A stretch of 64,000 bases of DNA from an uncultured Phaeodactylibacter sp. (GTDB lineage Bacteria; Bacteroidota; Bacteroidia; Chitinophagales; Saprospiraceae), in NCBI GenBank assembly GCA_964432875.1, contig CAYSPJ010000002.1:54473-118472 (forward strand), written 5' to 3'. Within the stretch, counting starts at the first letter, position 1, and each line of letters starts with the position of its first letter. Below are positions 25,664 to 30,096 of this stretch, piece by piece. The translations under genes and the position numbers were made by a program. Under the pieces are notes generated by a model, which was not told where the DNA came from, did no database searches, and was given only the letters and a program-made list of their open reading frames with translations.

Positions 25664-26194
25664 ATGCGCATCTATCTCATCGGTTTCATGGGCAGCGGCA
25701 AATCGCATACCGGGCGGCGGCTGGCTGCCTTGCTGCAATATCCCTTTATCGAGCTGGATCAATGGATAGAAGAAGCAGCCAGCATGGATATACCAGCTAT
25801 ATTTGCCAACAAGGGCGAGGCCTGGTTTCGGGAGCAGGAGCAACAGGCGTTATGGCGCACTGCTTCCTATGCCCAGGCAGTCATTTCCTGCGGCGGCGGC
25901 ACGCCTTGTTTTTTCAACAATATGGAATGGATGAATCAGCAAGGGCTGACCGTTTATCTGCACACTCCGGCCGACATCCTCCTGAGTCGCTTGCGCCAGG
26001 AAACAGCCCAGCGCCCGCTGCTTGCCGGACAGGGGGAGCAAGCCTTGCAAGTTTTAATCGAAAAAAAACTGGCCGAACGAGAAGGATATTACCAGCAAGC
26101 CAGTGTCATCTACTCCCAAAAGACTGGAGAGGAGGATATCGCCAGGGAGTTGTGCCGATATTTAGGGGGAGCTAACCTATTGCATGGCGTATGA
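25664..26194 (+). CDS. aroK: Shikimate kinase
   Basis: IYLIGFMGSGKSHTGRRLA P-loop, GGGTP, 176 aa. Confidence 0.88.
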   Translation: MRIYLIGFMGSGKSHTGRRLAALLQYPFIELDQWIEEAASMDIPAIFANKGEAWFREQEQQALWRTASYAQAVISCGGGTPCFFNNMEWMNQQGLTVYLHTPADILLSRLRQETAQRPLLAGQGEQALQVLIEKKLAEREGYYQQASVIYSQKTGEEDIARELCRYLGGANLLHGV

Positions 26195-26847: not shown

Positions 26848-29800
26848 ATGGCATTCAAATTTTCCATCCCCTTCTTTGCATTCCGCTTGCACCTCCATCC
26901 TGGTTTAAGCCTGCTAGCCCCTTTGTCAGACCACCAGGCCTTGCGCATCGGGCAACCGCTGTCGGCCGTTGCAAAGCAGTATGCTGATGCTTTACAGCAG
27001 AAGGTACTGAACACGGGCAACTATCGCGCGGTGCTGGAAGAGTATCGGGAGGGCGATTTCTACCGGAGCGTGCTGGAGGCCAGCTTCCCCGCCGCGCCCG
27101 ACCGCCTCAGCTTTCCGGCTTTCAGCCTGGAATTCGACTACTATTTCAACCGGCAGGAAAAGGGTTATTGGGGGATAGTGCCAGCCCTGAAACTGGAAGC
27201 TTTTGCCGATGACGAGCCACAGCTCGCCGCGCTCTTGAAGGAAGCCGTACAGCTCGATTTTAGCCGGAAGAAACGGCTTCAAGCCGTGCAGGATATCGTG
27301 TCGGCTATTTGGTTTGAAAGCATCGAGCTAAAACAGCACGCCATTGACTTTGAAGCTTATACCCCTGCGGAATTAGAACTGTTGCAGGAGCAGCGCAAAA
27401 GCAATTTGCTGTCGGATGTAGCTACCTTGCTGGTCGTAAAAAGCCCCGCTTGCTATGGGATGGAAAAGGAGCTCGAGCAGTTGGTCAGCACACTTAAGAG
27501 CAAATTTGTGCGGAATGTGTTATTGGTAGGGCCTTCCGGGGTAGGTAAAACGGCATTAGTATGGGAATTGGCCCGGCAACAACGCCGGCGGCGGGTCAAA
27601 GAACAGTTTTGGGAAACGACAGCTTCTACCCTCATCAAAGAGTTGTCGCAAGAGATGGGTTGGCAGGAGAACCTTTCACAGCTCTGCCGGGAAATTAGCG
27701 GCAGCGACAACATCCTCTTCATCCGCAACCTGGCAGAACTATTCGAGGTAGGCATGTATGAAGGGAATTCAATCAGCATGGCTGATTACCTGGGCGCTTT
27801 CCTCAGCCGGGGGGAGATCACGATGATCTCGGAATGTACCGAAGAAGAGCTGGCACGCATCGAGCTGAAAAACCCGCAATACCTTTCCTTTTTCCAACAG
27901 ATCCACCTCAAAGCCCCGGAAGGGCAAGCGCTGGAAGCCATTATTTCACAAAAGGTACAGGATGTGGCACAGCTCCGGCAAACCGAAATCGAAGAAGAGG
28001 CCATCCGCGAAGCCATCCGACTGAGCCGCCGTTTTGAGCCCTACTCCGGCATGCCAGGAAAGCCCATCCGTTTCCTGGAAAGCCTATTGCTGGATAAAAA
28101 GCGTGTTGCGGGCCAGGATGCAGCCTCGATCAAGCTTTCTCGTTCGGAAGTGATCCACCGTTTTTGCCAGCAGACTGGTATCCCCCGTTTTATGGTTGAC
28201 CCCGCTATCCCGATGGACATCACGGCCATCAAAGCCGCTTTTAATAGCCAGTTGTTTGGGCAGGAAGCCGCCGTAGAAAGCGTAGTGGGTTTGTTAGCCG
28301 CCGTTAAAACCGCGCTTACCCGCATCGGTAAGCCGATTGCCTCTCTGCTTTTCCTGGGCCCCACCGGCGTGGGCAAAACCGAATTGGCCAAGGTGCTGGC
28401 GCAATTTATGTTTGGCGGGCGCGACCGCTTGACCCGCTTTGACATGAGCGAGTATTCCAACGCTTACTCCGTGCTCCGCCTCACCGGCGAGGGTTTCTTT
28501 TCGGAAGGCTTGCTCACCTCCGCCGTGCGGCGCGCACCTTTCAGTGTGTTATTATTTGATGAGATTGAGAAAGCCCACCCGCAATTCTTTGATTTGCTGT
28601 TGCAGATACTTGAAGGGCGATTGACCGACAGCCAGGGCAAGCTGGCCAACTTTTGCAGCACTATCATCATCATGACCTCGAATATCGGCGCGCAGAATCT
28701 GGCACAAAACCCCATTGGCTGGAAGCAACAAATATCCGGGCGGGAAGTGCAGCAGCACTTTATTACTGCTGCCGAGGACTATTTCCAGCCAGAGCTGTTC
28801 AACCGGATCGACAAGGTCATCCCTTTTACGCCCCTGGATCAGGATACCGTCCGGTTTGTAGTGGACCGGGAAATTCAATTAATCCGGCAAAGAGAGGGGA
28901 TCCGCTTCCGCCGCATGAACCTCCACATTGAAAACGAAGTGCTGGACTACTTGGGGGAGCAAGGCTATGACCCCCGGTATGGCGCCCGCCATTTGCAGCG
29001 CACCATCCGGGAATACCTGCTGACTCCCCTCTCCAGAGCATTAAATACCCAAGACATCGACGACCAGCTGGAAGTCGAGGTGCGGATGCGTGCCGGGCGG
29101 ATACAAATCGATATCGCCTCTGATCCCTTGGGGCTGGAGCTGCTTTTAGAAGAATATGGCCGGATTCAGCATTCCGACTATGCCAGCCGCCTGCGCCGTA
29201 AAATAGAACAGATCAAGGATGGCCATCTTTATACTCAGCTGATCAACGAACTTGCTTTTTTTGAACAAAAGCGGGCGGCCGCCAAACAACGTTTTTGGGA
29301 TAACTTGCCGGAGGCAAACCGCTACTCCGCTTTTCAGGAATCGAATCAGGAAGCAGAACACTTATACCAACGCATCCAAGACCTGGAGATGGGCTTTGCT
29401 ACTTCCTCTCTGGGCGTCGTGCCTTATAAACCCGCCTGGGAAAACGAGCTGCGCGCCTGGGAAGAGCGGCTCTTCGAATTCAAGCTCCGGCTTTGCTCCC
29501 GGTTGAACCCCGAGAACAATCAGTGTTGCTTGTCGATCTATGGCGCTGAGCCGGAGCCTCTGGTGCAGCTTTATACGAGCCTTTTTCAGGCGAAGGGGTT
29601 TCAATTTGAAGCCTACGGCGTCTGGTTCCGAGAAAGTTATTACAATGAAGAAGTGCTGGAACAAACGGATAAAGGCATCGCCCGGCACAAGCGCAAGCAG
29701 TACATTAAACAGATAATTGACATGGCAACCTGTTTGGCCCCATTCAACCCACCCGAACCTGGTGATGTGCTTTGGGGGGTGGAATTCACCATCAGCAGCC

Positions 29801-30096
29801 CTTGCGCCTACCTTTACCTCGAAGAGGAAGGGGGTGGGCAAAAATGGGAGGGCCGCGATGGGAAAGACCGCTTCTATATGGTGCTGGTCAGCAAAACGGT
29901 AGAAGAGACGCCCAACAAGTTACATCGCAAAGAATTTTATGAAAAAATGACCCCACGCCGGACGATTACACCCCAAGAGCTGAAAGATAGGGTTTACAAA
30001 ATCAACCGGGAATGCAACAAATCTGCCCTGCTCGGTTTTATTATGGAGAAACTGGATGAACGTTTCGCCGTCCAATTAGATAAAGAACTATTATGA
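26848..30096 (+). CDS. Atypical Clp/Hsp100-family double-AAA+ ATPase with novel N-domain and release-factor-like C-terminal extension
   Basis: NBD1: GPSGVGKT, but the Walker B reads ILFIRNLA. NBD2: GPTGVGKTELAKVLA, LLFDEIEKAH, IIIMTSNIG, FNRID, and D2-small RYGARHLQRTIREYL. There are about 215 unassigned N-terminal residues and about 330 extra C-terminal residues. Confidence 0.85.
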   Translation: MAFKFSIPFFAFRLHLHPGLSLLAPLSDHQALRIGQPLSAVAKQYADALQQKVLNTGNYRAVLEEYREGDFYRSVLEASFPAAPDRLSFPAFSLEFDYYFNRQEKGYWGIVPALKLEAFADDEPQLAALLKEAVQLDFSRKKRLQAVQDIVSAIWFESIELKQHAIDFEAYTPAELELLQEQRKSNLLSDVATLLVVKSPACYGMEKELEQLVSTLKSKFVRNVLLVGPSGVGKTALVWELARQQRRRRVKEQFWETTASTLIKELSQEMGWQENLSQLCREISGSDNILFIRNLAELFEVGMYEGNSISMADYLGAFLSRGEITMISECTEEELARIELKNPQYLSFFQQIHLKAPEGQALEAIISQKVQDVAQLRQTEIEEEAIREAIRLSRRFEPYSGMPGKPIRFLESLLLDKKRVAGQDAASIKLSRSEVIHRFCQQTGIPRFMVDPAIPMDITAIKAAFNSQLFGQEAAVESVVGLLAAVKTALTRIGKPIASLLFLGPTGVGKTELAKVLAQFMFGGRDRLTRFDMSEYSNAYSVLRLTGEGFFSEGLLTSAVRRAPFSVLLFDEIEKAHPQFFDLLLQILEGRLTDSQGKLANFCSTIIIMTSNIGAQNLAQNPIGWKQQISGREVQQHFITAAEDYFQPELFNRIDKVIPFTPLDQDTVRFVVDREIQLIRQREGIRFRRMNLHIENEVLDYLGEQGYDPRYGARHLQRTIREYLLTPLSRALNTQDIDDQLEVEVRMRAGRIQIDIASDPLGLELLLEEYGRIQHSDYASRLRRKIEQIKDGHLYTQLINELAFFEQKRAAAKQRFWDNLPEANRYSAFQESNQEAEHLYQRIQDLEMGFATSSLGVVPYKPAWENELRAWEERLFEFKLRLCSRLNPENNQCCLSIYGAEPEPLVQLYTSLFQAKGFQFEAYGVWFRESYYNEEVLEQTDKGIARHKRKQYIKQIIDMATCLAPFNPPEPGDVLWGVEFTISSPCAYLYLEEEGGGQKWEGRDGKDRFYMVLVSKTVEETPNKLHRKEFYEKMTPRRTITPQELKDRVYKINRECNKSALLGFIMEKLDERFAVQLDKELL

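Follow-up and report, generated by a model that had tools for sequence, protein, structure and literature searches.

Introduction

Class-I release factors (RFs) and their derivatives have been surveyed by Burroughs and Aravind (PMC6514570). The sections of that survey drawn on here cover RF1/RF2, ArfB/ICT1, C12orf65, PrfH and MRPS35, all of which retain the catalytic-domain fold, and they describe the catalytic domain as an insertion within the codon-recognition domain. In this study, we analysed a 64,000-nucleotide stretch of DNA (the window) from an uncultured Phaeodactylibacter sp. (GenBank assembly GCA_964432875.1, contig CAYSPJ010000002.1, positions 54,473 to 118,472 of the forward strand). 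One of its genes encodes a 1082-amino-acid (aa) AAA+ protein whose C-terminal tail resembles these factors. The open reading frame (ORF) listing places the whole gene at 26848..30096 on the + strand, stop codon included, and all parts of the protein described below lie on this strand. Like PrfH, ArfB/ICT1, C12orf65 and MRPS35 as treated in the same sections of PMC6514570, the tail is a trimmed class-I RF derivative recruited for a special task. Those four proteins have shed domain 1, the codon-recognition domain or both; the tail has instead shed the catalytic domain.

The sections of PMC6514570 used here also describe Pelota/Dom34-ABCE1 and Vms1-Cdc48, two archaeo-eukaryotic pairings for ribosome rescue and ribosome-associated quality control; in each, stalled ribosomes are handled jointly by an ATPase or unfoldase and an RF-fold protein to which stop codons are illegible, Pelota/Dom34 being catalytically dead. 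The likeness of our protein to these pairs is a functional analogy only, and no homology is claimed. Pelota/Dom34 and Vms1 use an unrelated eRF1-type fold and are separate polypeptides, and Vms1 is catalytically active, whereas here the mimic and the ATPase are fused. The term 'Clp' is absent from PMC6514570, and the sections used here describe no catalytic-domain-free RF version. The first-pass annotation of the window, made from the letters alone, knew of no described Clp protein carrying an RF-type mimic. This agrees with our finding that neither those sections nor the literature searched described a fusion of an RF tail with a Clp protein.

The 1082-aa protein is a lineage-specific double-ring AAA+ unfoldase of the Clp/Hsp100 type with a C-terminal, diverged class-I RF homologue of about 320 residues. 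It is best classed as a new Clp/Hsp100 ATPase subfamily, to which a class-I RF derivative of a new, catalytically dead type is joined.

Sequence blocks and predicted fold of the tail

Pfam and NCBIfam recognised families only in the middle of the protein, namely two AAA+ modules of the Clp/Hsp100 type. Residues 1-200 and 760-1082 matched no Pfam or NCBIfam family at E <= 10. The segment 29185-30096 of the window, which corresponds to residues 780-1082 plus the stop codon, had been singled out in the first-pass annotation, where four blocks were read as counterparts of RF2 motifs. We found the 1082-aa ORF and all four blocks. Block (i), QRFWDNLPEANR, occupies residues 814-825, one residue off the position first given (815-826). 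Block (ii), NQCCLSIYGAEPEP, and block (iv), ISSPCAYLYLEEEGGGQKW, stand at 891-904 and 982-1000 as annotated, and block (iii), LVQLYTSLFQAKGFQFE, was located at 905-921. The distance from the tryptophan of block (i) to the cysteine of block (ii) is 77 residues (W817-C894), compared with 81 in E. coli RF2 (W47-C128); the earlier estimates of about 85 and about 90 were both somewhat high.

An alignment of 36 tails (A1, residues 741-1082) served as input for structure prediction and profile work. AlphaFold2 (AF2), run on A1 without templates, gave a tail model with a mean predicted local distance difference test score (pLDDT) of 92 and a predicted template modelling score (pTM) of 0.83. We then searched this model against the PDB with Foldseek. 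The results showed that the top 47 matches were all RF2, RF1 or mitochondrial mtRF1/mtRF1a, with E values down to 6.5e-8 and probabilities of 0.94-1.00, and that the first unrelated match had a probability of 0.08. Template modelling scores (TM-scores) ranged from 0.25 to 0.44, and the best belonged to free RF2 (1gqe, 0.44; 2ihr, 0.42). Modest values are expected, because the query lacks a domain of about 90 residues, carries a 45-residue insert and has mobile domains. RF1 chains modelled without domain 1 were still matched by the tail (E = 7.5e-5, TMt about 0.41), indicating that the match does not depend on the helical domain alone. In its predicted fold, the tail follows RF2 (PrfB; PDB 1gqe, 2ihr) in having a helical domain 1, an alpha/beta domain 2 and a domain-4-like unit in colinear order, and the model thus reproduces the class-I RF arrangement of domain 1 plus domain 2/4.

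Profile comparison with release factors

The RF profile was built from seven sequences, comprising E. coli RF2, E. coli RF1 and five diverse RFs from IMG/VR contigs. The RF1 sequence, which we take to be correct, showed 41% identity to RF2 when aligned. The RF2 sequence was verified against the PDB and was identical to 1ml5_Z. The RF2-like viral-contig proteins served solely as members of the profile. Full-length RF2-like proteins, 39-44% identical to E. coli RF2, were present on IMG/VR contigs L004 (276 kb) and L005 (233 kb). PrfH-like proteins were present on contigs L009-L012 and L014, four of these contigs being 132-376 kb long and L014 13 kb.

Comparison of A1 with this profile by hhalign gave a score of 49.4 and a probability of 84% (P = 7e-6, 174 columns). 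The alignment spans tail positions 72-281 and RF2 residues 42-228 in two parts, 72-146 with 42-121 and 147-281 with 122-228, and it terminates exactly at the start of domain 3 (RF2 residue 228). Within it, the FW motif of the tail falls on RF2 V46-W47, C.L.IYG on C128-Y-L-D-I-Q-A-G, and ISG..AY..L..E.G.Q on I183..H199, so that colinearity covers three of the four blocks named in the first-pass annotation. Because the predicted-fold matches and hhalign agree on the same colinear mapping, we consider the tail very probably homologous to class-I RFs, with RF2 as its nearest relative.

The score was compared with several controls. Sixty column shuffles scored 15.7 +/- 2.1 with a maximum of 20.9, the reversed profile scored 16.3, and the real score stood about 16 standard deviations (SD) above the column shuffles. 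Shuffles of 12-column blocks scored up to 46.4; they retain the matching blocks and are therefore not a clean null, and their high scores indicate that much of the signal resides in a small number of local blocks. When domain 3 was deleted from the RF profile, the probability was 87-91%. An RF2-only profile gave 80% and extended the match to tail position 37, equivalent to RF2 residue 19, and an RF1-only profile gave 3%. Comparison of the tail with the single RF2 sequence by hhalign was weak (3.9%), and comparison with PrfH-like sequences gave no match.

Searches of sequence databases were negative, which places the homology outside the range of HMM-to-sequence methods. Neither the tail profile nor the tail sequence reached an RF among PDB sequences (phmmer, hmmsearch), and the A1 profile reached no ordinary RF among 1.84 billion representative proteins. 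A word-indexed search with the tail alone returned no match although the identical full-length protein is in the database, which makes this negative untrustworthy for sub-sequence queries. Three of the checks proposed in the first-pass annotation can thus be reported: the fold search of the predicted tail and the profile-profile comparison both matched class-I RFs, and the hmmscan of residues 760-1082 against Pfam PCRF (PF03462) and RF-1 (PF00472) gave no match at E <= 10.

Elements retained and lost in the tail

Conservation was measured over 203 full-length family members. The helical module resembling RF domain 1 (29122..29505; residues 759-886) was delimited from the four long helices of the AF2 model and from hhalign. 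It contains an invariant DPLGLELLLEE junction and the FW motif at 816-817. The module resembling the alpha/beta domain 2 of RFs (29506..29892; residues 887-1015; hhalign) is interrupted by a family-specific insert of 45 residues (29632-29766; residues 929-973).

The first-pass annotation had suggested orthologue conservation of the four blocks as a further check. The results showed conservation at the cores of blocks (i), (ii) and (iv) and poor conservation of block (iii). None of the outcomes that the first-pass annotation had named as refuting its reading was observed. In block (i), F816 (92%) and W817 (89%) are kept and the remaining residues are variable; in block (ii), C893 (76%), Y898 (86%) and G899 (94%) are kept. 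Block (iii) is weak at K916 (54%), G917 (39%) and F918 (54%), but Y909 reaches 99%. In block (iv), conservation is 92% at G984, 100% at E994, 96% at G996 and 82% at W1000.

At the aligned positions that are invariant in RFs, the tail keeps 4 of 22, namely RF2 G185, L192, E195 and G197, which become G984, L991, E994 and G996. These kept positions belong to the structural core of domain 2. RF2 H199 is replaced by Q998 and R200 by K or R at 999, and the RF-invariant residues G137, G138, E140, A141, R203 and S216 have been lost. RF2 and the tail share the ISG..AY..L..E.G core, the FW motif (VW in RF2) and the C.L.I.G strand. Unlike RF2, the tail lacks domain 3 with its GGQ, the SPF loop, the GG.EA tip and RHTS. 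It also differs from RF2 in carrying the domain-2 insert, in forming the C-terminus of an AAA+ protein rather than a free factor, and in escaping detection by the PCRF and RF-1 models.

In place of SPF..RHTS stands a shorter loop (residues 1001-1009) in which conservation reaches 32% at most, and no SPF or PxT tripeptide-anticodon motif occurs in the tails of the 203 members. RF domain 3 (GGQ, about 90 aa) is absent from all 203, with no RF-1 match in Pfam; the segment equivalent to residues 1015-1038 measures 15-44 aa in every member, with a mode of 23. At the domain 3 position lies a short linker (29893..29952; residues 1016-1035) with a TPxKIHRKEFY motif. Its basic and aromatic motif, TP.KIHRKEFY....RR, is conserved at P1022 (93%), H1026 (80%) and R1027 (90%). 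The linker and the domain-4-like segment are together net positive (mean +2.3), and the remaining tail is acidic. The conserved basic residues H1026, R1027, R1037 and R1038 sit at the points from which an RF would send out domain 3 and the switch loop. The motifs DPLGLELLLEE, WFRE and HRKEFY have no RF counterpart in the alignment.

A literal GGQ at residues 996-998 (29833-29841) was considered as a catalytic motif and rejected. It lies within the E-x-G-x-Q strand, equivalent to RF2 E195-x-G197-x-H199, and aligns with G197-V198-H199 of RF2 and not with the catalytic loop; its middle residue varies within the family. The GGQ string is a coincidence.

The tail module is thus unable to hydrolyse peptidyl-tRNA and lacks every known stop-codon reader. 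The description in the first-pass annotation, a diverged class-I RF homologue nearer to RF2, without GGQ domain or tripeptide anticodon and carried on a Clp-type AAA+ protein, agrees with these results. We also considered the tail as a relic of a 'pre-insertion' RF ancestor. This is unlikely, since the tail is restricted to a single lineage of family level and resembles RF2 more than RF1, as would be expected if domain 3 had been lost secondarily.

The C-terminal unit

The last 47 residues (29953..30093; residues 1036-1082) form a beta-beta-beta-alpha unit in the AF2 topology, which is the putative equivalent of RF domain 4. The model shows three short strands followed by a long helix at pLDDT >= 90. 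Strand-strand-strand-helix is the order found in RF domain 4 structures. Conservation is 90% at R1037, 99% at R1038 and 96% at D1047. By eye, PRRTI..KD..KINRE followed by the helix resembles IRSY..KD.R.. of RF domain 4, and this resemblance received no support from the sequence tests. The score of the C-terminal profile against the RF profile lay inside the shuffled null, and its scores against an RF domain-4 profile, in global and permissive local mode, also lay inside shuffled nulls. Deletion of domain 3 from the RF profile added only about 20 columns to the alignment, and their register conflicts with the strands of the model. In the module of domain 1 plus domain 2/4 claimed in the first-pass annotation, domain 1 and domain 2 are therefore supported by sequence and the domain 4 half is not.

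The AAA+ motor and the N-terminal domain

The first AAA+ module, D1 (27454..28167; residues about 203-440), falls within a region aligned by the NCBIfam ClpA model at 203-731. It carries a Walker A motif, GPSGVGKT (27529-27552; residues 228-235), which D1 retains across the 203 members. At its Walker B position (27712-27729; residues 289-294), ILFIRN stands in place of hhhhDE. The pair that should be acidic is RN in 143 of the 203 members and DE in none, and no member has an acidic pair at this position. The second module, D2, together with the D2-small domain, spans 28225..29082 (residues about 460-745). Pfam assigned AAA_2 at 495-656 (E = 1.5e-45) and ClpB_D2-small at 663-745 (E = 4.5e-15). 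The D2 Walker A motif is GPTGVGKT at 504-511 and its Walker B motif is LLFDE at 568-572, with DE in all 203 members. The best PDB sequence matches of D2 were the D2 modules of ClpB and ClpC.

Given the established roles of the Walker B glutamate, D1 is probably a ring that binds nucleotide without hydrolysing it and serves assembly, and D2 is predicted to be an intact, active motor resembling those of ClpB and ClpC. The protein did not reach the NCBIfam equivalog cut-offs for ClpA (323.6 against 993 bits) or ClpB (313.3 against 1232 bits). PADLOC also matched the D2 module to DolB and PDC-M37B (E about 1e-28), and we judged these matches generic.

An IGW tripeptide in D2 (28714..28722; residues 623-625) is a candidate ClpP-docking loop. 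It lies in register with IGL at 617-619 of E. coli ClpA, whose fragment was verified against the PDB. The position is hydrophobic-G-hydrophobic in about two thirds of the members and hydrophobic-x-hydrophobic in most others; ISL, ISW and VRL are among the variants. Judged from this pattern, coupling to ClpP is possible but uncertain.

The N-terminal domain (26848..27447; residues 1-200) is family-specific and conserved among the orthologues. Residues 1-201 scanned alone gave no Pfam match at E <= 10, and Clp_N was not among the 25 best of the 51 Pfam families matched by the whole protein. The AF2 model of this domain had a pLDDT of 63 and no significant PDB match in fold or sequence. Residues about 100-140 locally resemble TTHA1756 (PDB 2yzt), an uncharacterised protein of 67 aa; the likeness has E = 0.42 in a hidden Markov model (HMM) search and a Foldseek probability of 0.98 with a root-mean-square deviation of 1.2 A over 45 columns.

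The protein is therefore like ClpA, ClpB and ClpC in its two AAA+ modules, its AAA_2 and ClpB_D2-small families and its hydrophobic tripeptide at the docking position of ClpA. It is unlike them in its sub-cut-off scores, the lack of a Clp_N match, the dead Walker B of D1 and the RF-like tail of about 320 residues.

Distribution of the family

We found more than 120 full-length orthologues of 1056-1105 aa, which are 47-68% identical to the protein over 98-100% of its length. Because they share one architecture, the fusion is genuine and not an assembly artefact. The named orthologues of the full-length protein belong to Phaeodactylibacter, Lewinellaceae or Saprospiraceae. The A1 profile search of the 1.84 billion representatives returned 306 clusters at 50% identity, and in the full-length matches the tail occupies about residues 735-1090 of proteins of 1030-1140 aa. 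Nine shorter matches were inspected; their N-termini all start within the D2 module, and these short tail-only matches are taken to be gene fragments.

A scan of species-representative genomes found the RF-tailed AAA+ protein in at least 95 species, 80 of which provided the species names and neighbour counts used here. Most of the 80 are Saprospiraceae, Lewinellaceae, Lewinella or Phaeodactylibacter. The remaining listed species carry higher-rank labels of metagenome-assembled genomes (Bacteroidota, Bacteroidia, Chitinophagales or 'bacterium'). Tail conservation is slightly below that of the AAA+ core. Since at least 95 species and 306 clusters share a conserved tail that is always C-terminal, the tail is a functional module, and the fusion is real, old within its lineage and maintained by purifying selection. 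The listed species include the cultured hosts Phaeodactylibacter xiamenensis KD52, P. luteus KCTC 42180 and Flavilitoribacter nigricans DSM 23189, so experiments are feasible.

Proposed role of the protein

According to established knowledge and the sections of PMC6514570 used here, the ribosomal A site is where every characterised protein of the class-I RF fold works. Because A-site occupation is the only known job of this fold, we tentatively propose, as a reading that is plausible though short of probable, that the dead RF module serves as a targeting module. It would bring the hexamer to ribosomes, or to 30S decoding-centre regions, whose A site is vacant, and no stop codon would be needed for this docking. 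Once docked, D2 would exert its pull on a polypeptide that the ribosome carries, be it a nascent chain or a bound factor, and might hand it to ClpP through the IGW loops. The conserved basic and aromatic residues of the linker region and the positive charge of the C-terminal segments speak for this indirectly. The fullest form of this proposal would be a single-polypeptide machine, possibly coupled to ClpP, that enters stalled ribosomes at the vacant A site and either extracts the nascent chain or a jammed factor by mechanical force or degrades it, as a previously unknown quality-control route specific to Saprospiraceae and Lewinellaceae; we put this form forward with greater reserve.

Several observations weigh against this proposal. 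Known Clp ATPases take their substrates at the face of the N-domain and D1, opposite the ClpP side, and the tail is attached to the D2-small domain, at the face of the ring nearer to ClpP. Just 4 of the 22 RF-invariant aligned positions are retained, and the GG.EA tip of helix alpha5, R203, the SPF loop and RHTS are all lost or variable in the alignment. Since every stop-codon-reading element is affected, A-site binding cannot be assumed, and recruitment to ribosomes would follow by analogy with other proteins of the fold. In the model, the TM-scores of 0.25-0.44 amount to no tight global superposition, and the putative domain 4 is identified by its topological resemblance and the fold matches to RF chains, not by sequence. 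The glycine of IGW is present in just about two thirds of the members, which leaves the ClpP step uncertain. Across the 80 species, no translation-related gene is consistently adjacent.

Much of this evidence would also suit a tail that derives from RF2 and works off the ribosome, having been reused for substrate or adaptor binding, regulation or oligomerisation in a specialised Clp unfoldase or disaggregase with an unrelated client. We regard this as the main alternative, a real possibility that nevertheless falls well short of being likely. It would account for the loss of all decoding and catalytic elements with the few invariant positions left, for the variable loop at the place of the anticodon mimic, and for the family's own motifs DPLGLELLLEE, WFRE and HRKEFY. 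The absence of translation genes from the neighbourhood, a divergence too great for HMM searches to reach RFs, and the attachment of the tail on the ClpP-proximal rather than the substrate-entry side of the ring also fit it. However, the domain 1 and 2/4-like module is kept in the RF arrangement, which a mere scaffold would not need, and the new conserved basic residues would suit contact with nucleic acid. Moreover, by established knowledge and in the sections of PMC6514570 used here, no protein of this fold is known to work off the ribosome. Should the module have lost ribosome binding, it would be the first case known to us in which the class-I RF fold has been put to use outside translation.

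It is improbable that the tail acts as a decoy that mimics RF2 and captures proteins that normally recognise it, such as RF3 or an ArfA-like rescue adaptor, so that the unfoldase could remodel or degrade them or complexes containing them. Such a decoy would fit a tail that keeps the helical domain 1 with an RF2-like FW motif and resembles RF2 more than RF1, and domain 1 is named the GTPase-interacting domain in the sections of PMC6514570 used here. Apart from FW, however, domain-1 residues are poorly conserved between the tail and RFs, and no partner gene is linked to the locus.

It is very unlikely that the tail is not homologous to RFs at all and that the likeness reflects chance or a bias of the structure predictor. 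The searches of Pfam, NCBIfam, PDB sequences by HMM and 1.84 billion proteins without an RF match, the TM-scores below 0.5 and the lack of a sequence signal in domain 4 would be expected in that case. It would leave unexplained 47 consecutive RF matches at probabilities of 0.94-1.00, and an hhalign P value of 7e-6, about 16 SD over the column shuffles, that came with the same mapping as the structure. Nor would it explain an alignment that ends at the domain-3 boundary and an E-x-G core motif that is invariant in the tail.

Compared with the reduced RF paralogues in the sections of PMC6514570 used here, the tail is their reverse, with the ribosome-facing scaffold kept and the catalytic domain discarded. 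RF surveys that query with the catalytic domain could not have detected the RF-tailed Clp family. The fusion offers a testable hypothesis for ATP-driven mechanical handling of ribosome-bound polypeptides in bacteria. To our knowledge, such a role has so far been found only in eukaryotes, with Cdc48 in ribosome-associated quality control. A machine docking in the A site would, if real, be a bacterial, fused counterpart of Pelota-ABCE1 or Vms1-Cdc48. The family also defines a new Clp subfamily in which the D1 ring is predicted to be constitutively dead. Its architecture is surprising for specialists in translation quality control or AAA+ proteins.

Gene neighbourhood

In the window, aroK and a DUF429 gene precede the AAA+ gene, and YajC, DUF1573 and YbbR genes lie upstream on the other strand. 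The stop of the AAA+ gene overlaps the start of a downstream S8 subtilase gene by 4 bp (ATGA, 30093-30096). The S8 gene follows immediately on the same strand in 39 of the 80 species; aroK lies in the vicinity in 31 of the 80 and the DUF429 gene in 23. Unbiased clustering of the flanking ORFs in these species revealed no neighbour common to all, and S8, aroK and DUF429 are all missing beside the more distant orthologues. The N-termini of 14 S8 orthologues and of the S8 protein in the window are signal-peptide-like, indicating that the protease is exported and an unlikely partner for a cytosolic unfoldase.

This arrangement, together with weak PADLOC matches to IetA (E = 4e-5) and IetS (E = 1e-5), recalls an ATPase and subtilase two-gene module of the IetAS anti-phage defence type, but such a module is hardly credible here and is largely refuted: the IetA match covers the P-loop only and the IetS match is generic S8 similarity, the S8 proteins appear to be exported, the pair is missing in about half of the species, mainly distant ones, and inheritance is vertical, with housekeeping neighbours (aroK, yajC) in many species without the pair.

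No tRNA, tmRNA or Rfam family at its gathering threshold was found in the 64-kb window. The G+C content of the window is even (0.48-0.56), and nothing around the gene points to a foreign island. A second ATGA overlap joins aroK and the DUF429 gene (26191-26194), and the two overlaps suggest translational coupling.

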